A DNA stretch of 64,000 nt from an uncultured Chloroflexia bacterium (lineage in GTDB: Bacteria; Chloroflexota; Limnocylindria; Limnocylindrales; CSP1-4): the NCBI GenBank assembly GCA_963763775.1, contig CAVXPZ010000003.1, positions 768,001-832,000 on the forward strand, read 5' to 3'. Of this stretch, positions 51,007 through 64,000 are shown one piece after another. The notes under the pieces were generated by a model. The model saw only the letters and a program-made list of their open reading frames with translations, searched no databases and had not been told where the DNA came from. Each line of letters starts with the position of its first letter. Position 1 is the stretch's first letter. The translations under genes were made by a program, and so were the position numbers.

Positions 51007-52305
51007 ATGACCAGCGCCCTGCATCCGGCCCGCCTCACTGCCTGGCTCACCCAGTGGCAAGCCATCGTGCCGCTGCTGGTGGCCGAGTTCGTGGTGTGGC
51101 TGGGGTTCGGCGGCCTGCTCCCGGTCCTGCCCATCTACTTCACCGAGCAGGGCGTCGATCTTGCGACCCTCGGCCTCGTGATCGCCGCTTGGCCCGCGGC
51201 CCGACTGGTGAGCGAGCCGATCTTCGGCTGGGTCGCCGACCGCACCGCGCGCGTGCCCCTCATGGTCATCGGCCTGGTCGCGACGGGCGTCTTCGGCGCG
51301 CTCCCGCTCATCCTGACCACGCCCCTCGCGTTCGTGCTGCTCCGCGCGGGAGCGGGGCTGAGCGCAGCCATGTACGACCCCGCGGCCCGAGGACTCCTCA
51401 CGGACGCGACGCCACCGGGCAAGCGCGGCGAGGCGTTCGGGCTGTACGGGGCGGCGCAGATGGGCGGGCTCCTGATCGGCCCGGCGATCGGCGCGTTCGG
51501 GGCCTCCCACTTCGGCGGGATCGGGTTCGTGTTCGTGTTCAGCGCCGTGGCGGCGTTCGCGTCGGCGCTCCTGATCGCGCTGCGCGTCCACGAGGCCCCC
51601 GGCCGGACGCACCCGGCGCCGTCGCCGGACTCGACGGAGTTCCCGCCCGACTCCGCCGCGCTCGCCCGTCGGGCGGCGGACGACATCGATGCCGACCGGG
51701 CCCGAGTCGCCGATGCCGGCGCCCCGTCGTCGCTCTGGAACCGCGGGTTGATCGCCGTCATCGTCATCAACGCCGGAGGTTATTACGCGGGCGGCACGTA
51801 CGAGGTCATCTGGAGCCTGTTCCTGTCCGGGCTCGGTGCCGATCTTGCGTTCGTTGGGCTGACCTTCGCGATGTTCGGCCTGCCGGTCCTCCTCTTCTCG
51901 CCGCTCGCGGGCAAGATCGTCGACCGACGCGGGTCCTTCGCCTTCATCATCGTCGGCTCCCTGCTGCCCGCGATCTGCGGGATCCTGTACACGCGCCTCG
52001 AGTCGCCGGAGCCGGCCGTGCTGCTCATCCTCGTGGAGGCGACCGGGTTCGCCTTCCTGAACCCGGCGCTCTACGCGGTGGTCGCGGCCAATTCCCCGCC
52101 GGGCCGGTCGTCGACCGCGCAGGGGCTGTTCGGGGCGGCGGGAACGCTCGGGTTCATCGTGGCGTCGCTCGGCGCCGGGGTCCTCGCCGAGCGCGATATC
52201 CTCCTGCCGTTCTACGTGTTCTCGACCGTGCTGCTCTCGTCGCTGGTGGTCGGCCTGATCATCGGCGGCCCCCGACTTCGAGGTCGGCCCGCCGTCGTCG
52301 TTTGA
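51007..52305 (+). CDS. MFS transporter
   Basis: About 12 TM; GWVADRTAR and GKIVDRRG motif A. Confidence 0.9.
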   Translation: MTSALHPARLTAWLTQWQAIVPLLVAEFVVWLGFGGLLPVLPIYFTEQGVDLATLGLVIAAWPAARLVSEPIFGWVADRTARVPLMVIGLVATGVFGALPLILTTPLAFVLLRAGAGLSAAMYDPAARGLLTDATPPGKRGEAFGLYGAAQMGGLLIGPAIGAFGASHFGGIGFVFVFSAVAAFASALLIALRVHEAPGRTHPAPSPDSTEFPPDSAALARRAADDIDADRARVADAGAPSSLWNRGLIAVIVINAGGYYAGGTYEVIWSLFLSGLGADLAFVGLTFAMFGLPVLLFSPLAGKIVDRRGSFAFIIVGSLLPAICGILYTRLESPEPAVLLILVEATGFAFLNPALYAVVAANSPPGRSSTAQGLFGAAGTLGFIVASLGAGVLAERDILLPFYVFSTVLLSSLVVGLIIGGPRLRGRPAVVV

Positions 52306-52335
52306 CCGAACGGGGTCCGGCGACTACCATCCGCG

Positions 52336-52410
52336 GGCGGGGTGGAGCAGCGGCAGCTCGTCGGGCTCATAACCCGAAGGTCACTGGTTCGAATCCAGTC
52401 CCCGCAACCA
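52336..52410 (+). tRNA. Initiator tRNA-fMet (CAT)
   Basis: Anticodon stem with three G-C pairs (TCGGG-CTCATAA-CCCGA), unpaired 1:72, encoded CCA. Confidence 0.93.
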
Positions 52411-52423
52411 ACGCGCCCACCAT

Positions 52424-52452
52424 GAGACCCGGTCGATGGACCGGGTTTCTTG
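52424..52452 (+). terminator. Hairpin terminator after tRNA-fMet
   Basis: gagacccggtc-gatg-gaccgggtttc-ttg. Confidence 0.65.
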
Positions 52453-52605
52453 ATTCCGCGACCGGTCCGTGCGGCGCGGTCCCAGCCCCCGAGACGGAGA
52501 GCGGGTATCCTCACCCGCGTCGTCGGCCGATCTCCCTGTTCGGGACGAGTCCGACGCTGGACAGGAGGCGTCACGGCGCTGCCTCGCGCGGCGTCCTTGC
52601 ACCCG

Positions 52606-54183
52606 ATGGATCACGACGACCCTTCCCCGGACCCCGACGCGACCGAAGTCAGCAGCCTCGAGCCCGAGCCGGAGCTCTACGCCCCCGCACCACCCGGCGA
52701 CGACGAAGCTTCTGGGTGGGGCGCGGACGAGGCTGAGCCGGCGCCGCCGACCGGCCTGCGCTCGTCGCGGACCCTCGCGGCGATCCTCTCGTTCTTCATC
52801 CCGGGCACCGGTCAGCTCCTGACGGGCCGCGTCCTGGCCGGGCTGCTCTTCCTCTCGCCGGTCATCGTCGCGGTCATCGCGGCCGTGGTCGCCTCGGGCG
52901 GCGACAAGGGCAAGCTCCTTGGCTACCTCGTGCAGCCGAGCGTGCTCCTGGCGATCGCCGCGCTCGACGGCCTGCTGTTCCTGTGGCGCGCCATCGCGAT
53001 CATCGACGCCTGGTGGGGCCGCGGCTCACGCGCGCCGAAGTCGGTCGTCTCGGTCATCACCCTCCTGCTGCTGCTCGTGGTCACGGGCGCGACCCACTAC
53101 GTGATCGGCTCGCAGGTCCTCGCGGCCCGGGACACCGTGGACGCGGTCTTCGCGACGTCGGACGACGGCGGCGACGACGGCTTCGGGGTGATCCCTGACC
53201 CGACCCCGACACCCGCGCCCACGCCGACACCGAAGCCCGGCGACACCGCGGCCCCGACCGCAGCGCCGACCCCGACACCCGAACCGACACCGCGCCCGGG
53301 ACCGCTCGCGGACGGGCGTCTCGACGTGCTGCTGGTCGGCGGAGACGCCGGTCCGGGAAGGTGGAGCCTGCGGACCGACACGCTCATCGTCCTGAGCGTG
53401 GATGCGCAGACCGGCGACTCAGCCCTCTTCTCGATCCCGCGCAACATGGTCAACGTCCCGCTGCCCAAGGAGAGCCGCGGCGCCTTCAAGTGCCGCTGCT
53501 ACCCGCAACTGATCAACAGCCTGTATGTATATGCCTCAGGACACCCCGGGCAGTTCCCCGGCAACGACGACATCCGCGGGTTGCGGGCGGTCCAGATGGC
53601 GATCGGCACGCTGGTCGGGCGACAGCTCGACGGCATGGTCGTCGTCAAGCTCCAGGGGTTCGTCAAGCTCATCGACGCCATCCACGGGATCACCGTGACC
53701 GTCCCGCGCTCGATCCACGACGACCGCTACCCGCTCGAGAACGGCACCGGCTACGTGACGGTGAACATCCGGTCGGGGAAGCAGCACATGAACGGCCACA
53801 AGGCGCTCATGTACGCGCGGTCGCGGCATCAGGATTCGGACTACGGCCGGATGCAGCGCCAGCAGACCGTGATCTCGGCGATCGGCAAGAAGCTGCTCAA
53901 GGAGCCGCTCGTCATCCGCCTGCCGGACCTGCTCAAGATCGCCAAGGACAACCTCTGGACCAACCTCAAGACCAGGGACCTGCCGGACCTCGCGGCCCTG
54001 GCCGAGCAGGTCGACCTGGGGGCGATGCGCAAGTACCGGTTCGTCCCGCCGCGCTACCCGGAGTACCTGAATGGCGCCACGATCAAACAGATCCGGGCGC
54101 TCGTCGGGCACGTGTTCGACCACGCCGAGCCGCTCGACCGCCCGACCCCGCGCCCGACGGCGACGCCGACACCGACCCCATGA
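52606..54183 (+). CDS. LCP (LytR-CpsA-Psr) family wall-polymer ligase
   Basis: LLVGGD, RTDTLIV, SIPRN, ALMYARSR..SDYGRMQRQQ. Confidence 0.92.
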   Translation: MDHDDPSPDPDATEVSSLEPEPELYAPAPPGDDEASGWGADEAEPAPPTGLRSSRTLAAILSFFIPGTGQLLTGRVLAGLLFLSPVIVAVIAAVVASGGDKGKLLGYLVQPSVLLAIAALDGLLFLWRAIAIIDAWWGRGSRAPKSVVSVITLLLLLVVTGATHYVIGSQVLAARDTVDAVFATSDDGGDDGFGVIPDPTPTPAPTPTPKPGDTAAPTAAPTPTPEPTPRPGPLADGRLDVLLVGGDAGPGRWSLRTDTLIVLSVDAQTGDSALFSIPRNMVNVPLPKESRGAFKCRCYPQLINSLYVYASGHPGQFPGNDDIRGLRAVQMAIGTLVGRQLDGMVVVKLQGFVKLIDAIHGITVTVPRSIHDDRYPLENGTGYVTVNIRSGKQHMNGHKALMYARSRHQDSDYGRMQRQQTVISAIGKKLLKEPLVIRLPDLLKIAKDNLWTNLKTRDLPDLAALAEQVDLGAMRKYRFVPPRYPEYLNGATIKQIRALVGHVFDHAEPLDRPTPRPTATPTPTP

Positions 54184-54240
54184 TCCATCGCCCGACCCGC
54201 CCGCGATCGAGTGCTTGGCCCGCCCGCGATCGGGGCAGCG

Positions 54241-54334
54241 TTGGACGGATCGGGTCGAATCCGCTAGAGTGATCAGCACAAGAACGCCTTTTCCTTGAAC
54301 CCCGGGCCCGACCACCCGGGGTTCTTCCTTTTCC
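54241..54334 (+). ncRNA. Candidate ~55-nt sRNA with own promoter and terminator
   Basis: TTGGAC-N18-TAGAGT (54241-54270); hairpin gaaccccggg/cccggggttc 54297-54324 then ttcctttt. Confidence 0.45.
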
Positions 54335-54405
54335 GGACGCCGCGGACGTCGCGGACATCGCGGACCAGACGGCGCGTGCCGTCCCTCGCGTGTCGTCCCT
54401 CCGGC

Positions 54406-54528
54406 CGGGTACTGCCAGTACCCGACTCGCGACGCGTTCCTCGTGGTCGCCCACCGGATCGACAGGCCGCGGTCGGAATCGCGCCGGGTCCACGCTCGGC
54501 TGTTCGGGAACCGGCACTGACGGTTGCC
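54406..54528. repeat. 123-bp imperfect palindromic element, copy A
   Basis: Blocks GTACTGCCAGTACCCG / CTCGTGG / CGAC / CCACGCTC / GGnACTGAC at fixed spacing. Confidence 0.85.
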
Positions 54529-54650
54529 GCCCACGATGGCGATGGACTGTGCTGCCGCTCGTTGCGCGTCATGGGGTCGGACCCAGACCTCGCGGACGCG
54601 ACGAGGGACCCCGGCCCCAGGCCGAGGTCCCTCTGACGCGCCGGGATCCC

Positions 54651-55947
54651 CTATGGCGCGAGTCGCTGGTGGCTCGGATAGCTGTGGGAATCCCAAGGCG
54701 TTGGCTTCGACGCACCCGTCGCAGGGTCCCAGAGCACCTGCGCCGAGCGGTTGCCGTTCGCATCGGTCGTCGTCCCGAGGATCACCGAATCGTCGGGTGC
54801 CCACGCCCACGCGGAGCAACACGCCCCCTCGACATCGCCGGCGTACTGCATCTCGATGCCCGGCCCGCTGCCGTCGGCCGGGATCGCGACCATGCGGGCC
54901 CCAGCGAACCCGCTGCCATAGCCTCGGATCATCGCGAGCCGCTTGCTGTCGTTGGACCAGGCGAAGCCCGCGTTCCAGTGCTCGGACGAGTCCACGACGA
55001 TGTCATGCGTGCCATCGGCGTGCATGACGTGCATCCGGGCGGAGACGTCGTCCGAGTCCTGCCACGCGTTGTAGGTCAGGAGGGTGCCATCGGGCGAGAA
55101 GACCGGACGGTTCATCGAGCCGACGGGGTCCGCCGGCACGATCGGTCGCAGATGGGATCCGTCAGGGCGAACGGCGTAGATCGCGTCGCGGTCGCCGACG
55201 TAGCGAGTCCCGACGAACGCGATCTCGTCGCCGAGTGGTGCTCGATACGACGGGTCGACGGCGATCATCCCGACGTTGACCTGGTGGAATGCGGTCCCAT
55301 CCGACCGGGCGATGAACATCGCGGGCTCCGTCGGAGCCGATACCGGCGGCGACGCGCGCTGTCCCGCCGATCAGGATCTCCATCCCGTCGGGCGAGAACG
55401 CATACGAGTCGAGGGTCAGGAATTCGCTCGGCGTGACCCGCGTGAGGCCGCTGCCGTCGGGTCCCACCACGTATAGCGACGTGCCGCCGGAATCGGTCTT
55501 GCGGGCGAAGGCGATCTTCGTGCCGTCGAGCGACCAGCGAGGTTCCGTGTCGGTCGTGGCACCGGTCACGATGGCCGTGGTCTGGCCGGTGACCTGGTCT
55601 CCGACGTAGATGTCGCCATCCCGTTCGAACGCGATCAGGCCGTTCGCGGCCGGGCCGAATGGTGACGGCAGTCGGTGCGGCAAGGCCCCGACGACCACGA
55701 TCGTGCCCACGAGGAGGGCGAGGAGGACGAGCGCCACGCCGAGGGTCCGCCACGGAAGCCCTGGGACGCGGACGCGCTCGCTTGCGATGTCTGCCATGGG
55801 AAGCCACCTTCCTGGGAACGTCCAGGCGGGCCGCTGGCGCGTGCCGGCGGTCCGGCGGACGATGTCGTCTCGGTAGGGGAGCTCCGGCTGGAGATAGAGG
55901 TCCAGCAGGAGATCGGGGAGGGCGCGTTCGATTCGATCGGTCGTCAT
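54651..55947 (-). CDS. Anti-sigma-like membrane protein 1 with TolB/PD40 beta-propeller (frameshift ~55330)
   Basis: RQRPAW..RWLPM N-domain, TM, NGLIAF, WSLDG/FSPDG repeats; ATGA-coupled to sigma. Confidence 0.78.
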
Positions 55948-56507
55948 GCGACCTGCCCTCCGGTCACGGTGGCCCGGGCCGGTGTGGTCTCGGCTGCGGC
56001 CGTCGCTCGCATCGCGGCGAGTGCGTAGTGCAGCCGGGACTTCGCGGTCCCGAGCGGGATCCCCAGGGATGCGGCCACCTCCTGCAGCGGCATCCCCAGC
56101 AGGTAGTGCATAGCGACGACCGCTCGGTGCCCCGGGTCCAGGCGTCCGAGCGCTTGGTCGACGAGGTCGCGGTCGGCGAGGGCACCGGCGATGTCCGCGC
56201 CGGACGGCATGTCGATCGGGGTGAGCTCGACCTCGATCGCGCGCCGCCGTCGCCGGCGGAGGAGGTCGAGGCAGGAGTTGACGGTCAGCTTGTGGAGCCA
56301 GCCGTCGAATCGGTCAGGGTCACGAAGGCCCGGCAGGTCTCGCCAGGCCCGGATGAGGGCCTCCTGGACCGCATCGCGCGCGAGCTCGGGGTCCCGGAGG
56401 ATGAGGCGAGCGGCCGCGTCCAGCCGCGCGAGGCGCAGGTCGACGAGATCGGCGAAGGCGTCATGATCGCCTCGCTTCGCTCGTTCGACGCGGTCTCGCT
56501 GGTCCAC
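55944..56507 (-). CDS. ECF sigma factor 1
   Basis: ARDAVQEALIRAWRDLPGLRDPDRFDGWL; EVAASLGIPLGTAKSRLH. Confidence 0.93.
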   Translation of the reverse strand: MDQRDRVERAKRGDHDAFADLVDLRLARLDAAARLILRDPELARDAVQEALIRAWRDLPGLRDPDRFDGWLHKLTVNSCLDLLRRRRRRAIEVELTPIDMPSGADIAGALADRDLVDQALGRLDPGHRAVVAMHYLLGMPLQEVAASLGIPLGTAKSRLHYALAAMRATAAAETTPARATVTGGQVA

Positions 56508-56554
56508 GGTCGCCTCGGTCTTCGGCACGGCTCGTGGTGGTCGTGCTCGAAGGG

Positions 56555-56582
56555 TATGGCGCCGCCGTCGCGCGAAAGGTTC
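56555..56582 (-). promoter_or_regulatory. ECF-type promoter GAAC-N17-CGCCATA
   Basis: Same motif precedes all four sigma genes. Confidence 0.75.
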
Positions 56583-56617
56583 AACGGCCCGGTCGACGGG
56601 TCCACCTACCCACGGGC

Positions 56618-56740
56618 CGGGTACTCCAAGTACCCGTTTCGCGACGTCTTCCTCGTGGTCGCCCACCGGATCGACACGCGGCTGTCGGAATCGCGACTCG
56701 TCCACGCTCGGAAGTCCGGGAACCGGGACTGACCGTTGCC
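56618..56740. repeat. 123-bp imperfect palindromic element, copy B
   Basis: Ungapped match to copy A (about 106/123 by hand count). Confidence 0.88.
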
Positions 56741-56818
56741 TCGAGGGCGGCAATGTCGTCGACAGCGCGGGACCCCGACCCTCAGGCCGGGGTTCCGCCC
56801 GTTTTGGAGGACCGGTGG

Positions 56819-58108
56819 TCAGTGCGCGATGCGCTGCCAGTTCGGATACGAGGCGTCGGTCCAGGGGAGCGGCTTCGCAGGCCCGCCCTTCGGGTCGAGG
56901 AGCATCGCGTTGCTGCGTGTCCCGTTGGATTCGGGAAGGAGCAGGATCGACGAGTCGTCCGGTGCCCAGTCGATCCGGCAACAGCCTGGCGTCGGTCCGG
57001 TCTCGGTGACCTTTCCGGTCTTCACGTCGATGATCGCGTACGGCGCGGACATGTCGACCCCGGGGTCGGTGCGTCGCAACCGCTGGACGGCGATGCGAGT
57101 CCCGTCGTTGGACCAGATGGGCCAGGCGGTCAGCCAGTAGTTCGGGTCCGCCCCGAGCTCGCGGCGTCCGGTGCCATCGGCGTTCATCACGTACAGGCGC
57201 ATCGTGCCCGTGGCGTCGTCCGACTCCGGGAACGCGATCTGCGACCCGTCTGGCGAGTACCGCGGTTCGCGGAGCGTGTACTGGAGGTTGCCGCTCGTGG
57301 CGGGCGGGATCAACGGATGCAGGTCGCTGCCGTCCGCGTTCATCACGTAGAGCCCGACCTTGTCGAGGACCTGGCCGCGGAAGAGGATCTCGTTGCCGGT
57401 CGGCGGGCGGAAGACCGGGACGTCCACGTCGATCCCGCTCGTCAAGGTCTTGGGCGGGTCGATCCCGGCGCCGTCGTAGGTCACCACATCGGCGATCGCC
57501 TGGTCCGAGGTGGACGCGACGATATCGCCAGTTGGCGTCCAGTCCCACCAGTTCGGCGAGGCCAGGGGATCGGGCGTGATGGCATGCACGTTGGTGCCGT
57601 CGGCGTTCATCGCCATGATCCGGAAGAAGCTCCCGTTCCCGATGTCCGGTTGTCGCTGGAACGCGATCTGCGTCCCGTCGCGAGAGAAGACCGGCTCGAC
57701 GTCCGTGGTGTCGCCGCCAAGGATCAGTCGTGACTGTCCCGTCACCGGGTCGCCGACATAGATGTCGCCGTTGATGGCGTAGGGGATGACGCCGTTGGCG
57801 GCCGGGCCGAACGGCGCCGGGAGGCGTCGCTGCTGCGAGCCGGCGACCAGCAGGACGCCGACGATCAGGGCCAGCACGAGCAGCGCGACGGCGATCATCC
57901 GCCACGGGGCCCTGGGCGTGTACGCCCGCTCTTGGGTGATGTCAGCCATGGGGAGCCACCTTTCGGGGAACGTCCACGAGGGACGTTGCGGTCGGGACGA
58001 GGCACGCTCGATGGCGGCCTCGAGGTAGTCGGGGGTACGGGCGTCCGCGAGCTCGTCGAAGAGCCCAGCAAGGACGCGGTCGGCTCGGGAGGAACGATCC
58101 ATGGTCAT
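56819..58108 (-). CDS. Anti-sigma-like membrane protein 2 with TolB/PD40 beta-propeller
   Basis: PQRPSW..RWLPM, TM, FSRDG/YSPDG/WSNDG/WAPDD repeats. Confidence 0.82.
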   Translation of the reverse strand: MTMDRSSRADRVLAGLFDELADARTPDYLEAAIERASSRPQRPSWTFPERWLPMADITQERAYTPRAPWRMIAVALLVLALIVGVLLVAGSQQRRLPAPFGPAANGVIPYAINGDIYVGDPVTGQSRLILGGDTTDVEPVFSRDGTQIAFQRQPDIGNGSFFRIMAMNADGTNVHAITPDPLASPNWWDWTPTGDIVASTSDQAIADVVTYDGAGIDPPKTLTSGIDVDVPVFRPPTGNEILFRGQVLDKVGLYVMNADGSDLHPLIPPATSGNLQYTLREPRYSPDGSQIAFPESDDATGTMRLYVMNADGTGRRELGADPNYWLTAWPIWSNDGTRIAVQRLRRTDPGVDMSAPYAIIDVKTGKVTETGPTPGCCRIDWAPDDSSILLLPESNGTRSNAMLLDPKGGPAKPLPWTDASYPNWQRIAH

Positions 58109-58671
58109 CCGACCGGCCCTCCGAGTGCGGCCGCGCCTGCGGACGTGACCTCGTCGATCGAGACAGCGGAGCGCATGGCCCCGAGCGATCGATGGAGACG
58201 CGATTTCGCCGTCCCGATCGGGATCCCGAGCGTGGCGGCGACTTGAGGCAATGGCATGTCGACGTAGAGATGCAGGACGACGACGGCGCGCGCTTCCGGC
58301 TCGAGCCGAGCGAGCACGCGGTCGAGCAGATCGCGTTCCGCGATCCGGCCGGCGTCGTCCTGCGTGGGAAGGTCGTTGATCTCGGTGAGCTCGACTTCGA
58401 TCACGCGTCGCCGGCGCTTGCGGATGAGGTCGATGCAGGCGTGCGCCACGAGGCTGTGCAGCCAGTGGTCGAACGTCGCGGGGTCGCGCAGCCCCGGCAG
58501 GCTGCGCCAGGCCCGGATCAGGGTCTCCTGGACGGCGTCCTGGGCCAGTTCCGGGTCACGGAGGATGAGGCGAGCGGTGGCGTCCAGGCGCGCACCGGAC
58601 GCGCGGGCGAGTTCAGCGAAGGCTTGCCGGTCGCCTCGCTGTGCCCGTTCCACGAGTCCGTGCTGGTCCAC
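58105..58671 (-). CDS. ECF sigma factor 2
   Basis: AQDAVQETLIRAW; GIPIGTAKSRLHR. Confidence 0.93.
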   Translation of the reverse strand: MDQHGLVERAQRGDRQAFAELARASGARLDATARLILRDPELAQDAVQETLIRAWRSLPGLRDPATFDHWLHSLVAHACIDLIRKRRRRVIEVELTEINDLPTQDDAGRIAERDLLDRVLARLEPEARAVVVLHLYVDMPLPQVAATLGIPIGTAKSRLHRSLGAMRSAVSIDEVTSAGAAALGGPVG

Positions 58672-58720
58672 GATCGCCTCTCGGCTTTCGGCGCGACCTG
58701 GATAGCCGCGTTCGATAGCC

Positions 58721-58749
58721 TACGGCGCTGGTGTCGGCCCGGAAGGTTC
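58721..58749 (-). promoter_or_regulatory. ECF-type promoter GAAC-N18-CGCCGTA
   Basis: Variant of the shared motif. Confidence 0.65.
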
Positions 58750-58792
58750 CCAGTTCCCTTCCGGGCCGGAGGTTCAGGGCGGTGGGTCGGCG

Positions 58793-60098
58793 TCAGGGGC
58801 CGACGCGCTGCCAACTGCCCTCGCCGCTTGCGGACCACGGCATCTCGGTCACGCGTCCCGTGGCCGGGTCGGCGAGAACGTGACGCGCCGTGGGGGTGTC
58901 CGCATCGAGGCTGCCGAGTAGCGACGCGTCGTCCGGCGACCACGACCAGCCACCGCCGCAGGTCCCGCCGCCGATCTCCGGGCAGACGAGTTCCACGGAC
59001 CCACCGGTTCCGTCGATCGATACCACCGCGGACCGATCGTTCGAGAAGTCAGGCGCGTACCCGCGGTCCACGATCATCCGGGTGGAGTCGTTCGACCACG
59101 CCCCGGGGCTGATGTGGACAGCCCCGGGGTCCGAGCCAACGAGATGGTCGCCCGTCCCGTCGGCCGCCATGACGTGCGCCTGGGAGCTGCTTCCGTCGAC
59201 ATTCGGGTCGAACTTGCCATACGAGACCCATCGGCCGTCGGGGGACCACCTCGCGCCGTAGATGTCGGATGTGGACGACGGTTCGATCAGGGTCCGATGG
59301 GCGCCAGTGTCCAGGTCGAACACCGACAGACTACGCGATGCCGCCACCAGGGAGTCGTTCCGTCACCAGGACCTGCGAACCGTCGGTCGGGCGATAGGCC
59401 GGTGCCTCGACCTCGTCGACATCTGTCGGGAGCTGCACATCGACGGTCTTCGGGGGGCGGGAGCCATCGCTGGCGACCTCGAAGAGCCGCGCTTGCCCGT
59501 CGATCAGGGCGGTCACGAGAAGGCCGCGACCATCCGGCGAGAACGTCCAGTCGAGCAACGCATCGACCGGATCCGGGGTCACCCTGGCCAGTCCGGTCCC
59601 GTCGGTCTTCACGACGAAGATCGCCAGATCGCCTGAAGTGACCTGGCGCTTGAAGGCCACATGCGTACCGTCGGCGGAGTACACGGGCAGAGAGTCCGAC
59701 TCCGGGCCACCGACGAGCACTTGCGTCTTCGTCGTGGCAGGGTCAAGGGTCAGGATGTCGCCCGCCCCTTCGAAAGCGATCAGACCGTTGTGAGCGACGC
59801 CGAATGGCGGTGGCAGTTTCGGCTGCTGTGCGCCGATGAAGGCCACGGTGCCGGCGACGAGGAGCGCAAGGGTGACGAGGGCGAGCGCGATCATGCGCCA
59901 CGGCATTCGCGGGGCGAACGCCCCGGTCCGGGTGATGTCAGCCATGGGGATCCACCTTTCGGGGAACGTCCACGCAGGGCGCTGCCGCATCCGGCCGGTC
60001 TGCGAGAAGACGTCGTCGAGGTATTCGGGGGTGGGACCCATCGCCAGGTCGGTCAGGATGGACGGAAGGCCGCGCTCGAGGCGCTCGGGGGTGGTCAT
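58793..60098 (-). CDS. Anti-sigma-like membrane protein 3 with TolB/PD40 beta-propeller (frameshift ~59345)
   Basis: MTTPERLERGLP..RQRPAW..RWIPM, TM, YSADG/FSPDG/WSPDG repeats. Confidence 0.8.
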
Positions 60099-60655
60099 GC
60101 GACCTGCCCTCCCTGGACGGGCGATGGGGCGAGTGGCTCCGGCCCGATCGCGATGCGCATCTCGCCGAGGGCGCGATGGAGTCGCGACTTGACCGTGCCG
60201 ATGGGGATGCCGAGGGTCGTCGCGACATCCGTCAGCGGCAGCCCCAGGAAGTAGTGCAGGACGACGACCGCGCGAGTGTCCGGGTCGAGCCGCCCCATGG
60301 CGGCATCGACCAGGTCGCGGTCGGCGATGGCGGACGAGGCGTCGGCCACGGTCGGGGGATCGATCGGCGAGATCTCGACCTCGATCGGCCGTCGTCGACG
60401 GCGGCGGACCAGGTCGAGACACGCGTTGATGGTCAGGCGGTGGAGCCAGGCGTCGAACCGCTCGGGGTCACGCAACCGCGGGAGGTCGCGCCAGGCTCGG
60501 ATGAGGGCCTCCTGGACCGCGTCGCGGGCCAGCTCCGGATCCCGGAGGACGAGGCGGGCGACCTGGTCCAGTCGCGTGACGGCGTCGCGGGCGAGCTCGG
60601 TGAAGGCGTCATGCTCGCCTCGCCTCGCCCGTTCCACGAGTGCCCGCTGGTCCAC
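60095..60655 (-). CDS. ECF sigma factor 3
   Basis: ARDAVQEALIRAW; GIPIGTVKSRLHR. Confidence 0.93.
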   Translation of the reverse strand: MDQRALVERARRGEHDAFTELARDAVTRLDQVARLVLRDPELARDAVQEALIRAWRDLPRLRDPERFDAWLHRLTINACLDLVRRRRRRPIEVEISPIDPPTVADASSAIADRDLVDAAMGRLDPDTRAVVVLHYFLGLPLTDVATTLGIPIGTVKSRLHRALGEMRIAIGPEPLAPSPVQGGQVA

Positions 60656-60705
60656 GGTCGCCTCGGCTCTGTGTGGCGACGGCCCCGATGGCCGCGCTCA
60701 CAGGG

Positions 60706-60733
60706 TATGGCGTCGATGTCGCGGTTTCGGTTC
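60706..60733 (-). promoter_or_regulatory. ECF-type promoter GAAC-N17-CGCCATA
   Basis: Shared motif. Confidence 0.75.
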
Positions 60734-60753
60734 TTGGACGGGAGGCGGCTCCC

Positions 60754-60876
60754 TGGGTACTGCCAGTACCGGTTTCCGCATGAGTCTCTCGTGGAGTGCA
60801 GCGGGATCGACACTGGATCGGTCGTTTCGATGAGTGGCCACGCTCGGATGTGCGACACGTGGTACTGCCGGTACCG
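60754..60876. repeat. 123-bp imperfect palindromic element, copy C
   Basis: All conserved blocks align ungapped to A/B although the spacers have diverged. Confidence 0.82.
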
Positions 60877-60955
60877 CGGCGACTGGACGTGCCAGGACGG
60901 CGGGCCCCCAAGCCCGCCGCCCTGTCCGGCGTAAACGACGATCGACCTGGTCGGC

Positions 60956-62179
60956 CTACGACGCCGGTGGCGTCGGCAGCGCGTCGAGGAACCGGACGCT
61001 GTCGAGGACGGACCGGTCGGTGAGGTTCTGGCCGCTCTCGGTCACGGCGCCCTCGAAGACGAGCGTGTGACCGTTCACCTCGGTGATGACGATCGGCCAT
61101 GCGTCGCCCCCGATGTCGCTCGCCCACTTCCAGCCTGGGTCGGCATGCTGGGTCCATTGGAGGACCAGGTTGGTCTCGCCGTTGTCGGGATTGGTCCAGC
61201 AAGGCTTCGGGACGACCTTGCCGGCGATGTCCACGATGACGGCCCGGTGGCCGTCGACCGTGGTCTCGCGCTCGTTCGTCAGATCCAACCCGGATGACGG
61301 ACTGCGGAGGAACGCGACGAACGGGTCGATGCCGCGCTCGAGGACCTTGGTCCCCTTCTTGTCATCGCAGAAGTCGTTGAACCCATCCGGGTCTTGCCAA
61401 GCCTTGAACGTGGCGTCGCCCGATGGGGTGTCGGCGGTGATGACCCCGTTGCCACCCCCGCCGAGCCACACGCCCGACGGCAGCGTGAAGGAGAAGAAGG
61501 GATCGAACCCTGCAGCGACGAGCGGCCCGCCGTGGCTGTCGTGGCTCCCGGAACGGATCCACGTCCCCGGGACCATCGCGGCGCGGATCTTGCAGGGATC
61601 GTCGACGGGATCCAGGGTCAGCCAGACCCCATCGGTCGAGATGGACCAACGGTAGTGGGCGACATCGCCGGTGTGGCAGCCGCCGATCGCCCCGGTCGAG
61701 GTGAGCTCGATGACACCAGGGCTCGTCTCGCGCACGCGGGCGGGCGCGGTCCCGCTGATCGCGAAATCAGGCGCTTTCGGATCGCCATTGAGCGCTCCGA
61801 ACTGGAGCACCGACGCCGGGCCTTGGGCGATCGGGGAGTCGCGCAGGGGCGCCAGCCACCCCCCGACGAGGTCGCTCGGCAGGGGCTGCGGACTCGGACT
61901 CGGAGTTGCGGTGGGCGCGCCGACGCTCTGACTCGATCGACTGAAGAGGAACGCGCCGCCGAGGATCGCCACGATCGCGATCGCGACGATGGCGAGGGCC
62001 GGCCGGCTCGAGATGGCAGGCATGGTTGAGAACCACCTTCCTGGGGTCGCCCAGGCAGGCCGCTGACGCGAACGGGCGGTCTGCCCGAGGATGTCGATGA
62101 AGTAGTCGGGGGTGGGCTCGTCGGCCAGGTCCGCCAGGGCGATCGGCAGATCTCGTTCGAATCGATCGATCGGGGTCAT
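60956..62179 (-). CDS. Anti-sigma-like membrane protein 4 with non-propeller, Cys-containing ectodomain
   Basis: MTPIDRFERDLP..RQRPAW..GRW, TM, then a domain lacking PD40 repeats. Confidence 0.78.
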   Translation of the reverse strand: MTPIDRFERDLPIALADLADEPTPDYFIDILGQTARSRQRPAWATPGRWFSTMPAISSRPALAIVAIAIVAILGGAFLFSRSSQSVGAPTATPSPSPQPLPSDLVGGWLAPLRDSPIAQGPASVLQFGALNGDPKAPDFAISGTAPARVRETSPGVIELTSTGAIGGCHTGDVAHYRWSISTDGVWLTLDPVDDPCKIRAAMVPGTWIRSGSHDSHGGPLVAAGFDPFFSFTLPSGVWLGGGGNGVITADTPSGDATFKAWQDPDGFNDFCDDKKGTKVLERGIDPFVAFLRSPSSGLDLTNERETTVDGHRAVIVDIAGKVVPKPCWTNPDNGETNLVLQWTQHADPGWKWASDIGGDAWPIVITEVNGHTLVFEGAVTESGQNLTDRSVLDSVRFLDALPTPPAS

Positions 62180-62739
62180 GCCAGCCGTCCTTCCGTGACC
62201 AGGTTCGACTCGGTCGCGGGACCGACGCCGACCGTGCTGCGAAGCACGCCGATCGATCGGTGCAATCGCGACTTCGCGGTGCCCAAGGGGATCCCGAGGG
62301 TGCCCGCCACCTCCGGCAGCGGCATCCCCAGGTAGTAGTGCAGGACGACGACCGCTCGCCATTCGGGCTCCAAGGCCCGGAGGCCGCGGTCGAGGAGTTC
62401 TCGGTCGATGATCTGCGACGAGGCATCGGCGACGCTCGGCTGGTCGAGGACGGTCAGTTCCACCTCGATGGGTCGGCGCCGGCGATGCCTCGCAGCATCG
62501 ATGCAGGCGTGGACGGTGAGCCGATGCAACCACGCGTCGAACTTCTCGGGATCACGAAGCCCCGGAAGGTCTCGCCAGGCTCGCATCATCGCGTCCTGGA
62601 CCGCGTCCCGTGCGAGTTCGCGGTCCCGGAGGATGAGGCGTGCGGCCGCGTCCAGGCGCACGATGGCCGCGCCGGCCAGCACGGCGAAGGCGTCGTGATC
62701 GCCTCCCCGCGCTCGCTCGACGAGGTCTCGCTGGTCCAC
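62176..62739 (-). CDS. ECF sigma factor 4
   Basis: ARDAVQDAMMRAW; GIPLGTAKSRLHR; GTG start at 62739 by homology. Confidence 0.93.
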   Translation of the reverse strand: MDQRDLVERARGGDHDAFAVLAGAAIVRLDAAARLILRDRELARDAVQDAMMRAWRDLPGLRDPEKFDAWLHRLTVHACIDAARHRRRRPIEVELTVLDQPSVADASSQIIDRELLDRGLRALEPEWRAVVVLHYYLGMPLPEVAGTLGIPLGTAKSRLHRSIGVLRSTVGVGPATESNLVTEGRLA

Positions 62740-62791
62740 GGTCGCCTCGGCTGTTGTGGGCGGCGCCACCAGGGTGGTTGCGCTCACAGGG

Positions 62792-62819
62792 TATGGCGAC
62801 CGCGTTTGGTGAATCGTTC
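62792..62819 (-). promoter_or_regulatory. ECF-type promoter GAAC-N17-CGCCATA
   Basis: Shared motif. Confidence 0.75.
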
Positions 62820-62860
62820 CCGGGGTGCGCGAACAGCCCCGCGGTGCCGTAGCGGCTCCG

Positions 62861-62982
62861 ACGTTCCTGCCAGTACCCGTTTCGCGATGAACGCCTCGTG
62901 GTCGAGCGCCAAAACGACGGGACGGCGCCGATCCAGTCGCGGACCACGCTCAGATCTTGAGATCCCGGTACTGACAGGAACG
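62861..62982. repeat. 122-bp imperfect palindromic element, copy D
   Basis: Terminal IR gttcctgccagtacc/ggtactgacaggaac (14/15); inner cgtggtc/gaccacg. Confidence 0.82.
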
Positions 62983-63111
62983 GGGCCCGCCGCCGGGGGC
63001 ACGGACACGGGCCGAACCCGCGCGGTGGACAGCAAGCGGCCGGTCACGTAGCTGCGTGACCGGCCGCCCTGGAGGAAGAAGCGCGTCGGGTTCGCCGCGC
63101 CGCGGCGAGGG

Positions 63112-64000
63112 TTACTTGAAGACCATCGACGAGACGATCGGCAGCGAGTCCTGGGCCAGCACGTGGAACCGGCTCGGATCGGTCGAGTCGGCGTAGGCCA
63201 CGGCGAGGTCACCCCCGCCGATGTCGATCACCACGACCCGCATCTGTTCCTTGCCGGCGATCCCCCAGGTCGCCGCGGGGTCCGCGTCCTCCGCGGCAAG
63301 GAAGACCGAGGCCGGCTGGGGTTTCGGGTCGTCCTTGCAGCCCTGCTTCCAGCCGGGAGCGAGGCTGACATCGACCATCTGGGCCGGATGGCCACTGACG
63401 GTGATCGGTTTCGGCTGGGTCACCTGAAGGCTCGGCTGCGAGCGGATCCAGTCGATGTAGCCCTGCACCGTGTGATCGACGGAGGTGGCCGGCATCCTGG
63501 CGCAGTCCGCGTTGACCTGGTTCAGGACTGGCCGCGCCAATACCACGAGCTCCTCGAACTCCCCATTCGACAGTCCTTGGGCGCCGGCGCGCGCATAGTC
63601 CGAGGACGGCATGAGCACCAATTCGTTCGGCCAATCGCCGGAGTTGGCCCAGCCGTCCGGGACCGTGTAGGTGACGCCGCCATAGACCGGGTGCCACGAG
63701 GACCCCTTCAGCCGAGGATCGATGAACTGCGACGCGTAGGTCCCCGCCGCGAGGTCGCCCAGGCAGTTGTCCGTGGGATCCTTGCAAGCGGACTTGTGCC
63801 AGTCGCCGGCGATCCCGGCCACGCGCTTTGGACACGGGTCGTCGACGACGGTCAGGGTCAGGACGTTGCCCGCGATCGTCCAGGCGTAGTCGCCGGTGGA
63901 TCCGTCGGTGCAGCCGGCGCGGGCGGTCGAGCCGGTGACCAGGTGCAGTCGGCCCTCGCTCGGGCTCGATGCGCGAACGCTGAGCGCCGGAAGGCTCTGT
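63112..64000 (-). CDS. 3' part of a probable fifth anti-sigma-like protein (ectodomain related to protein 4)
   Basis: GC..Y.W.I..LTL..VDDPC..R..G.W, Y/FTxPxGW, TVxGHxA..VD, S..F shared with protein 4; runs off window. Confidence 0.7.
   Translation of the reverse strand, partial: QSLPALSVRASSPSEGRLHLVTGSTARAGCTDGSTGDYAWTIAGNVLTLTVVDDPCPKRVAGIAGDWHKSACKDPTDNCLGDLAAGTYASQFIDPRLKGSSWHPVYGGVTYTVPDGWANSGDWPNELVLMPSSDYARAGAQGLSNGEFEELVVLARPVLNQVNADCARMPATSVDHTVQGYIDWIRSQPSLQVTQPKPITVSGHPAQMVDVSLAPGWKQGCKDDPKPQPASVFLAAEDADPAATWGIAGKEQMRVVVIDIGGGDLAVAYADSTDPSRFHVLAQDSLPIVSSMVFK

Follow-up and report, generated by a model that had tools for sequence, protein, structure and literature searches.

The window considered here is a stretch of 64,000 nucleotides (C3:768001-832000) in genome G000, a 3.3-Mb, 71% G+C, 87%-complete assembly of four contigs whose host belongs to an uncultured soil and peat Chloroflexota lineage (G, C and L numbers designate genomes, contigs and loci). 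The subject is an imperfect palindrome of about 120 bp, present in the window as four solo copies within an array of extracytoplasmic function (ECF) sigma genes. The initial annotation had listed these copies at 54406, 56618, 60754 and 62861, and they are real: they align across ~120 bp with a mean column identity of 74%, and in an nhmmer profile search of the whole genome each is recovered with an E-value between 1e-26 and 1e-30, which is far beyond chance. With coordinates taken from the outer 7-mers, copy 1 lies at 54408-54527 (120 bp), where it follows the final partner gene of the array, which is frameshifted, and has no sigma gene beyond it; copy 2 (56620-56739, 120 bp) fills the gap between the stop of the partner gene 56819-58108 (minus strand) and the promoter-like motif belonging to the sigma gene that ends at about 56507-56531 (minus strand). 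Copy 3, at 60756-60875 (120 bp), separates the stop of the partner gene 60956-62182 (minus strand) from the sigma gene 60095-60655 (minus strand), and copy 4, at 62863-62981 (119 bp), separates the stop of the gene 63112-63999 (minus strand) from the sigma gene 62176-62787 (minus strand). The placement originally described, with a copy behind the stop codon of a partner gene and ahead of the promoter-like motif of whichever sigma gene follows, has thus been borne out, with the genes on the minus strand. The first 54 kb of the window hold no copy, as had also been reported, and the only other copy nearby on C3 (752510-752652) is outside the window.

The array itself comprises four ECF sigma genes (open reading frames, ORFs, 55944-56531, 58105-58671, 60095-60655 and 62176-62787, minus strand) with Sigma70_r2 and Sigma70_r4_2 domains, each then followed by a partner gene in which anti-sigma-like, transmembrane and extracytoplasmic parts are fused. 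All cassette genes are on the minus strand, and they are neighbours of the element, not parts of it. One cassette junction, 58672-58792 (121 bp), lacks the element in the profile and covariance-model scans and on direct reading, in agreement with the initial annotation, and its length resembles that of the element-free junctions of the congeneric genome G007 (93-113 bp). The partner gene 56819-58108 is unbroken, and in its product an anti-sigma-like N-terminus and a membrane span precede PD40 repeats; a locus search for relatives of this protein found none. The partner genes at 54651-55947 and 58793-60098 (minus strand) are each split into two overlapping ORFs in different frames, at about 55319-55340 and 59331-59347, and represent either real pseudogenes or assembly indel errors. 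A promoter-like motif is found upstream of three of the four sigma genes (56540-56590, 60690-60740 and 62790-62840, minus strand), consisting of TGAACC, AGAACC or GGAACG (GGAAC-like), about 18 bases and then CCATACCCT on the gene strand; its downstream half differs at the sigma gene 58105-58671. The motif, which resembles an autoregulated ECF promoter, is also kept in the G007 orthologues (L188). Behind a LytR_cpsA_psr gene (52450-54183, plus strand) there is a G+C-rich hairpin followed by a T-rich stretch (54290-54335). This feature, conserved in G007, probably serves as the terminator of the gene and faces the array. The GC skew was too flat for an origin to be placed when a bias of the copies toward one replication strand was sought.

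Architecture and pairing of the repeat

Each end of the element is a 15-bp palindromic box, G-NNN-CTG-N-CAG-N'N'N'-C, in all copies, so that the local hairpin first noticed at the left end is real and forms half of a wider pattern. Between the boxes lie inner blocks (CCTCGTGG or GAGCGTGG, then ATCGAC-N8-GTCG, then CCACGCTC) at constant spacing and symmetric about the centre; GAGCGTGG, which takes the place of CCTCGTGG in some copies, is the exact complement of the right block. The box triplets change together across copies and species (GTA/TAC, TTC/GAA, CGC/GCG, TAG/CTA), and in copy 4 of the window the outer arms, GTTCCTG and CAGGAAC, pair with each other. By simple arithmetic, the box centres are ~105 bp apart, that is, ten turns of B-DNA. 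Outside the elements, the box is found within two mismatches at only seven places of the genome, none of them paired. The five short blocks for which invariant offsets had been claimed are all exactly in place, read letter by letter, in the copies at 54406 and 60754, but the claim does not hold to the letter in the other two, each with one mismatch or shift: the copy at 56618 begins with AAGTACC (one mismatch) and ends with GGGACTG, which fits GGnACTG, and the copy at 62861 has the first three blocks exact and the last two one base earlier because it is one base shorter. The exact ends of the element are not fixed, since the intergenic DNA of empty sites is not alignable, in contrast to the coding flanks.

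All 16 copies of the genome are 118-122 bp long, and yet their mean pairwise identity is 59%. The closest pair, and the sole close one, is formed by the two leftmost window copies (54408 and 56620, 86% identical). Window copies 3 and 4 are by pairwise identity no closer to their neighbours in the window than to unlinked copies, and the nearest relative of copy 4 is the unlinked copy at C3:752515 (70% identity). In a relative, three copies are found in tandem within 530 bp (L173:4121-4651, G008:C21), the outer two being 92% identical and the middle one partial.

Pairing was scored on 42 sequences with a symmetric structure drawn by hand. In this set, 78.0% of cells were paired, against 70.1 +/- 0.9 in shuffles (none of 500 reached the observed value) and 32-44% when the partner was slid along; for the 16 copies of G000 the figures were 81.3% and 22-48% on sliding. 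The covariation score of the terminal helix was 0.301, against 0.176 in shuffles of the 42 sequences (again none of 500 reached it), with the caveat that related sequences can outscore shuffles even without structure. On average, the inner 7-mers pair best (5.9 of 7), followed by the outer ones (4.9) and by local pairing within the box (4.6). Covariation is limited to the terminal triplets, the RNAalifold consensus is -8.1 kcal/mol with a covariation term of +0.09 (no bonus), and G-U pairs number 78 and A-C pairs 56 on the aligned strand, so that neither strand is picked out. For six of the 16 copies, folding surpasses that of shuffles by a wide margin (z <= -2, with -5.5 as the lowest value); window copies 1-3 fold no better than shuffles (z 0.09-0.29) with every block kept. 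Since the blocks are kept in copies without a folding advantage, conservation is stricter for spacing and blocks than for pairing. The elements overlap no Rfam family, either at the gathering score or at E<=10. Two other readings of the conserved letters were rejected: a small ORF through the element, because the conservation takes the form of contiguous palindromic blocks and has no period of three; and a LexA-type or other operator, because the box triplets vary and covary.

Dispersal of the repeat and the sigma array in relatives

The 16 copies, recovered by a profile from twelve seeds run on the whole genome, are distributed over three contigs, and the covariance model R1 returns the same 16 and one weak copy (C4:3528-3671). 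When sigma-like places were mapped by tblastn with the four window sigma proteins (40 places), a sigma gene was found 94-117 bp away from just three window copies, the fourth window copy being 1.5 kb away and the remaining twelve copies 1.2 to 322 kb from the nearest such place; 13 of the 16 copies are therefore not beside a sigma gene. The neighbours of the other copies are diverse (GGDEF, MFS, Mur-ligase-like, DUF2071, GNAT, histidine kinase, polyketide cyclase-like and flavoprotein genes). According to a crude GC3-based gene caller, applied to 42 loci (16 own, 26 of relatives), the element is intergenic, with 15 loci convergent, 18 tandem, 4 divergent (all of them doubtful overlapping calls) and 5 undetermined. 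It is nearly always the 3' end of a gene that adjoins the element, and the orientation of the element relative to that gene varies. No recombinase had been seen in the window, and the wider search agrees with this: the tyrosine recombinase family PF00589 has four places, all on contig C1, with none on C3 and none within 100 kb of an element, and the Y1 HUH transposase family PF01797, resolvase, IS110, TnpB-type, rve, DDE_Tnp_1 and DDE_3 were not found in this 87%-complete genome.

Among relatives, the family is restricted to the genus and patchy within it. Model R1 detected it in 12 of 24 same-genus genomes and in none of 16 genomes of a sister family (genomes of ~1.1 Mb), and, with strict filters at E<=1e-5, in 5 of 6 same-genus genomes and in 0 of 144 genomes from 48 other genera of the family. 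With R2, a broader model built from the 42 sequences, 27 of 40 same-genus relatives gave matches (up to 56, both strands included), and the other 13, G007 and G012 among them, gave none. The nearest named relatives of a window protein are Candidatus Limnocylindrales metagenome-assembled genomes (MAGs), at 64% and 58%. No sigma-like ORF was present within the fetched flanks of the 33 element loci from relatives (some of them overlapping); in the 35 loci scanned, the only match was that of G000 itself.

Several individual sites were also observed. At C1:1182179 (L035), more than 20 relatives have conserved the gene on the left, synteny stops exactly at the element, and the gene to the right has almost no counterpart. 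An element lies between Mur-ligase-like and DUF2071 genes both in G000 (L038, C4:68491) and in another species (L172, G001:C4); in the latter, two copies in the same orientation bracket the DUF2071 gene and a kumamolisin-like protease gene, and the repeat marks a rearranged spot. In G018 (L054:3-1004, contig C165), a gene for a nuclease of a different family, PDDEXK_1 (PF12705), ends 100 bp before an element, and a second element follows 1.1 kb further on.

The sigma array exists without the element. In G007, the LCP gene is followed by four sigma cassettes in the same order as in the window, and the best G007 matches of the window sigmas are colinear (74-77%, against 66-72% for paralogues). 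The cassette junctions of G007 measure 93-113 bp and contain no element, like the one empty junction of the window. It follows that the cassettes are older than the split between G000 and G007 and independent of the element. In G015, a truncated left half of the element occupies the junction upstream of the orthologue of the sigma gene at 58105-58671, that is, the very junction which lacks one in the window. Within the gaps of the array, elements are thus gained and lost; the sigma cassettes are an ordinary old tandem array, and the repeat came into their gaps later. Four peat-metagenome DNA runs also gave contigs that could be placed on positions 52000-64000, but none bridged an element, and the joints obtained were paralogue noise.

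The flanked gene and its predicted product

Only one gene of the genome, at C4:138665-139462, has copies of the element on both sides (138450 and 139491), 89 and 29 bp away. It encodes a protein of 265 residues with an HTH_3 helix-turn-helix (HTH) domain at 14-61, and strong homologues (48-62% identity) exist in many same-genus genomes. The physical association of gene and element extends to these. Among 32 homologue loci from the genus searched with model R2, 18 have a match at E<=1e-3 beside the gene, 6 a weak one only and 8 none, with matches on both sides in 10. In a set of 80 loci from named MAG records (all with Chloroflexota or Limnocylindrales labels bar two, and probably overlapping the first set in genomes), 57 have an R2 match at E<=0.01 and 23 have none; nearly all of the 57 matches end 46-229 bp before the gene start or begin within ~300 bp after the gene end. 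An nhmmer search of the same 80 loci gave 75 matches beside the gene against 2 in the 138.5 kb of farther flank, upstream in 39 loci, downstream in 36, on both sides in 24 and at neither side in 29. Similarity of one flank to the other was detected in 4 of 27 homologue loci without an nhmmer match. At the level of genomes, gene and element occur together in 20 of 40 relatives; 3 have just the gene, 7 have just the element, and 10 lack both (Fisher p = 0.005, with no correction for relatedness or incompleteness).

The gene and its flanking copies make up a module of 1.3 kb, which is missing from the syntenic site in three relatives: G017, G194 and G020 keep the GGDEF and MFS neighbours, and the space between these is 278, 149 and 226 bp, respectively, against ~1.6 kb in G000. 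A short hairpin is found at the empty site of G194 and G020. In other species, homologues occur in other contexts, with up to four or five copies per genome, some of them carrying stops. In G000, G001, G002, G004, G008 and G016, gene-flanking and solo copies have box types that agree; three solo copies of G023 disagree with the flanking ones. The module in G000 is itself bracketed by short tandem repeats of ~20 bases, of which three units lie to the left of it and two to the right (L040:2865-2995 and L040:4175-4325, on C4); they are missing from the empty sites of the relatives. In addition, weaker full-length relatives of the protein (25-37% identity) occur several times in every same-genus genome searched, including element-free ones; they point to a larger paralogous family.

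The N-terminal part of the protein is 42-49% identical to the restriction-modification controller proteins C.AhdI (E 2.9e-8) and C.BclI, and is labelled 'Control_protein' by PADLOC. The C-terminal domain has no match in Pfam or NCBIfam and no sequence match in PDB. A model of the full-length protein has a pLDDT of 85.4, and the C-terminal 191 residues are predicted (pLDDT 89.6, pTM 0.87) to form a helix, three strands, a helix and a strand, that is, the alpha-beta-beta-beta-alpha-beta core of the PD-(D/E)XK nucleases. The residues E103, D116, E131, K133 and Q145 are shared without exception by 12 of 12 sequences, and in the predicted structure D116, E131 and K133 accompany this core fold. The best Foldseek matches are all of the restriction-endonuclease fold (the endonuclease domain of the R2 retrotransposon, AF1548, SduA, NucS/EndoMS, XisH and Hjc). 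The protein thus appears, from its sequence and predicted structure, to be a previously undescribed fusion of an XRE/C-protein-like HTH to a PD-(D/E)XK-fold nuclease. The public family name is just 'XRE-family transcriptional regulator', and at E<=1e-30 the family comprises 145 representative clusters, with unnamed Atlas rows mostly of Chloroflexota.

Interpretation and known systems

It is reasonably probable, in our judgement, that the elements of the window belong, as solo copies, to a genus-restricted family of ~120-bp palindromic repeats whose trans partner is the HTH-nuclease, an arrangement like that of REPINs and RAYTs, or of miniature inverted-repeat transposable elements (MITEs) and insertion sequences (IS), with a different class of enzyme. 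Among the possibilities raised at the outset, the REPIN- or MITE-like one is that which the evidence favours, although the partner is no known transposase; a multi-subsite protein-binding site, another of them, is plausible, and would fit the fixed, indel-free spacing at 59% identity and the linked HTH-nuclease gene. In the mechanism that we propose, the HTH-nuclease would act in trans on the repeat, in a role like that of RAYTs for REPINs or transposases for MITEs. Controller proteins bind palindromic operators as dimers, and, given the likeness of the HTH part to these proteins, a dimer of it may read each terminal box; with the ten-turn spacing, both bound dimers would then lie on the same side of the helix. 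The nuclease domain might cut at the boxes, in a duplex, a cruciform or a hairpin, and this cutting would copy or move the repeat. Solo copies could arise through such mobilisation in trans or through recombination between two copies flanking the gene, and would have settled in four of the five terminator-to-promoter gaps of the older ECF sigma array, where they may add a hairpin between cassettes and would neither build nor shuffle these. More tentatively, the pair may represent a new partnership of repeat and enzyme, either a new transposon superfamily or a RAYT-like domesticated system, in which a stand-alone HTH-PD-(D/E)XK protein would read 15-bp boxes ten turns apart and, by cutting or resolving the extruded palindrome, would copy it or move it.

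A number of observations weigh against a repeat mobilised by the HTH-nuclease. No movement was seen, and apart from the one pair at 86% there are no near-identical copies; paralogues of the gene from a single genome are alike to only ~70%, and their alignment does not extend beyond the gene, so there has been no recent burst. No target-site duplication was evident, in that the copies with flanks read (14 of 16) have no consistent flank repeat; GTCGC stands on both sides of one copy and nothing comparable at the others. The homologue loci lacking a match (23 of 80 and 8 of 32) count on the same side, as does the mismatch between gene and element, with 3 of 23 gene-bearing genomes devoid of elements and 7 of 17 genomes without a strong homologue having them, many of these mismatched genomes being 59-80% complete. 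The flanking copies do not keep one orientation with respect to the gene, the box triplets differ between copies of one genome, which is awkward for a single HTH specificity unless the CTG-N-CAG core alone is read, and the Foldseek scores for the nuclease fold are modest (E 3.8e-4 to 0.07, TM 0.3-0.44). Finally, the copies are clustered, with 4 of 17 in 8.6 kb against 0.044 expected (Poisson ~6e-5 over the genome). This cluster could reflect local spread, a preference for the terminator-to-promoter gaps of the array, or an ancient co-duplication followed by loss in relatives; three of its four copies are as diverged from one another as unlinked copies are.

Alternatively, the element might not be mobile at all and might be a cis-element of the host under selection, such as a hairpin terminator, an insulator or a stabiliser of mRNA ends, or else a set of autoregulatory operators of the HTH protein. 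We regard this as unlikely, though worth keeping in view, as it would account for the constant length without indels at 59% identity, for the position downstream of genes and often between convergent ones (in the window, between the end of a partner gene and the next promoter-like motif), for the six copies that fold far better than shuffles and for the failure to find any of the seven transposase or recombinase families searched in the genome. On the other hand, orthologous places are not conserved, since more than 20 relatives have the gene to the left of C1:1182179 and no element there, and none of the array copies is present in G007; presence across the genus is patchy; window copies 1-3 fold like shuffles and still keep all blocks; and the operators of a regulon would be expected in promoter regions, whereas the element is found at gene ends. 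A family of structured non-coding RNAs (a small RNA or a 3'-UTR element), with the blocks as loops and the arms as stems, has some support, in that the terminal stem covaries, G-U pairs slightly exceed A-C pairs on the aligned strand and some copies form long hairpins. It is nevertheless very improbable, given the absence of any Rfam match, the weak RNAalifold consensus, the restriction of covariation to the terminal triplets, the varying orientation relative to the upstream gene and flanks that show no conserved promoter.

Two further explanations take the repeat to be a recombination product or a recombination site. Solo copies might be the scars of element-gene-element insertions, reduced by recombination between the flanking copies in the manner of solo long terminal repeats, with no mobilisation of solos in trans. 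Copies on both sides of the gene in at least 10 of 32 and in 24 of 80 loci, the single fixed length of solo copies, and left and right boxes of one copy that often differ in type, as expected of a recombinant, agree with such an origin, but many independent insertions of the module would be required, four of them inside one 8.6-kb array, the flanking copies are not always in the same orientation, and the tandem copies 250 bp apart at L173 leave no room for a gene; we hold it to be improbable as the sole source of solo copies. The initial annotation had itself suggested an attC-like site which assembles, excises or reorders sigma/anti-sigma cassettes, and it is true that four copies in the same orientation punctuate the cassettes, that same-orientation pairs bracket one or two genes elsewhere (L040, L054 and L172) and that the palindrome is imperfect and of fixed length. 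This proposal is largely refuted and retains only the slightest probability: 13 of the 16 copies are away from sigma genes and most are far from them, the cassettes have their own promoter-like motif, the contig has no integrase, the tyrosine recombinases being on another contig, no serine recombinase was found in the genome, and the RYYYAAC/GTTRRRY boxes are missing. The two observations named beforehand as fatal to it, copies scattered genome-wide and a stable cassette order, have both been made, the latter at the level of species rather than strains, as G007 keeps the order without elements.

The way in which long palindromic repeats spread and persist is an old open question. The present repeat offers a clear candidate partner, amenable to expression and testing, whose enzyme class is not established as acting as a transposase on its own. 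In the openly accessible literature searched, supplements apart, nothing was found that describes this repeat, or an HTH-PD-(D/E)XK gene with palindromic repeats on its flanks. The CSP1-4 family of this Chloroflexota group has been reported to have a raised transposase density and long intergenic spacers (PMC13212565), and the main text of that work mentions neither palindromes nor repeats.

The likeness to the REPIN/RAYT system (PMC3337134) extends over several features: dispersed extragenic palindromes in tens of copies, with a unit made of two inverted arms and capable of forming a hairpin; one protein-coding gene itself flanked by the repeat, with several divergent paralogues per genome possible; and long persistence without bursts of identical copies. 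In the present family, the inverted arms are paired in 78-81% of cells against 22-48% on sliding, and 16-17 intergenic copies are dispersed in the genome. The partner here is, however, no Y1 HUH transposase (PF01797 was not found in the genome) but an HTH with a PD-(D/E)XK fold. A REP measures 20-40 bp and has a tag, GTAG or CGTC (PMC3733652 for the tag), whereas the unit here is of ~120 bp with fixed inner blocks. As regards MITEs and IS, the element is likewise short and non-coding with terminal inverted repeats (the complementary and covarying 15-bp boxes), and while many of its copies stand alone, others lie at the ends of a unit that carries a gene and that, at a syntenic site, some genomes have and others lack. 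In the flanks read, no consistent target-site duplication was found. The element differs from MITEs and IS in that the copies are 59% alike instead of near-identical, the gene is flanked by whole 120-bp elements and not by short repeats, and no DDE, DEDD, HUH, serine or TnpB family was found in the genome, nor a parent with a known transposase and the same ends. The PD-(D/E)XK fold has precedents in mobile DNA, such as TnsA of Tn7 and the families YhgA-like, PDDEXK_2 and DUF4420, termed 'putative transposase' (PMC3424549). These, like the R2 retrotransposon endonuclease, have the same fold and D...ExK motif as the protein described here, and give precedent for the action of this fold at the ends or targets of mobile elements, but here the nuclease is alone with an XRE-type HTH in a 1.3-kb module, with no TnsB-like or reverse-transcriptase partner.

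In the integron, attC sites carry the consensus boxes RYYYAAC ... GTTRRRY at their two ends. The element resembles them as a fixed-length imperfect palindrome that punctuates gene cassettes in one orientation; unlike them, its ends are G-NNN-CTG-N-CAG-NNN-C in all copies, with no core boxes (a lack already remarked in the initial annotation), there is no integrase nearby, copies are dispersed genome-wide and the cassette order is stable. ERIC and Correia elements are imperfect palindromes of ~120-130 bp, intergenic in transcribed regions, of low to moderate copy number and found in either orientation, and in size class, imperfect palindrome, intergenic position, copy number and occurrence in both orientations the present element resembles them. 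To our knowledge, most long palindromic intergenic repeats of bacteria (ERIC, Correia, RPE) have no known partner protein. The element of this lineage has no sequence relation to ERIC and belongs to a different phylum, and in contrast to such repeats it comes with a candidate partner gene.

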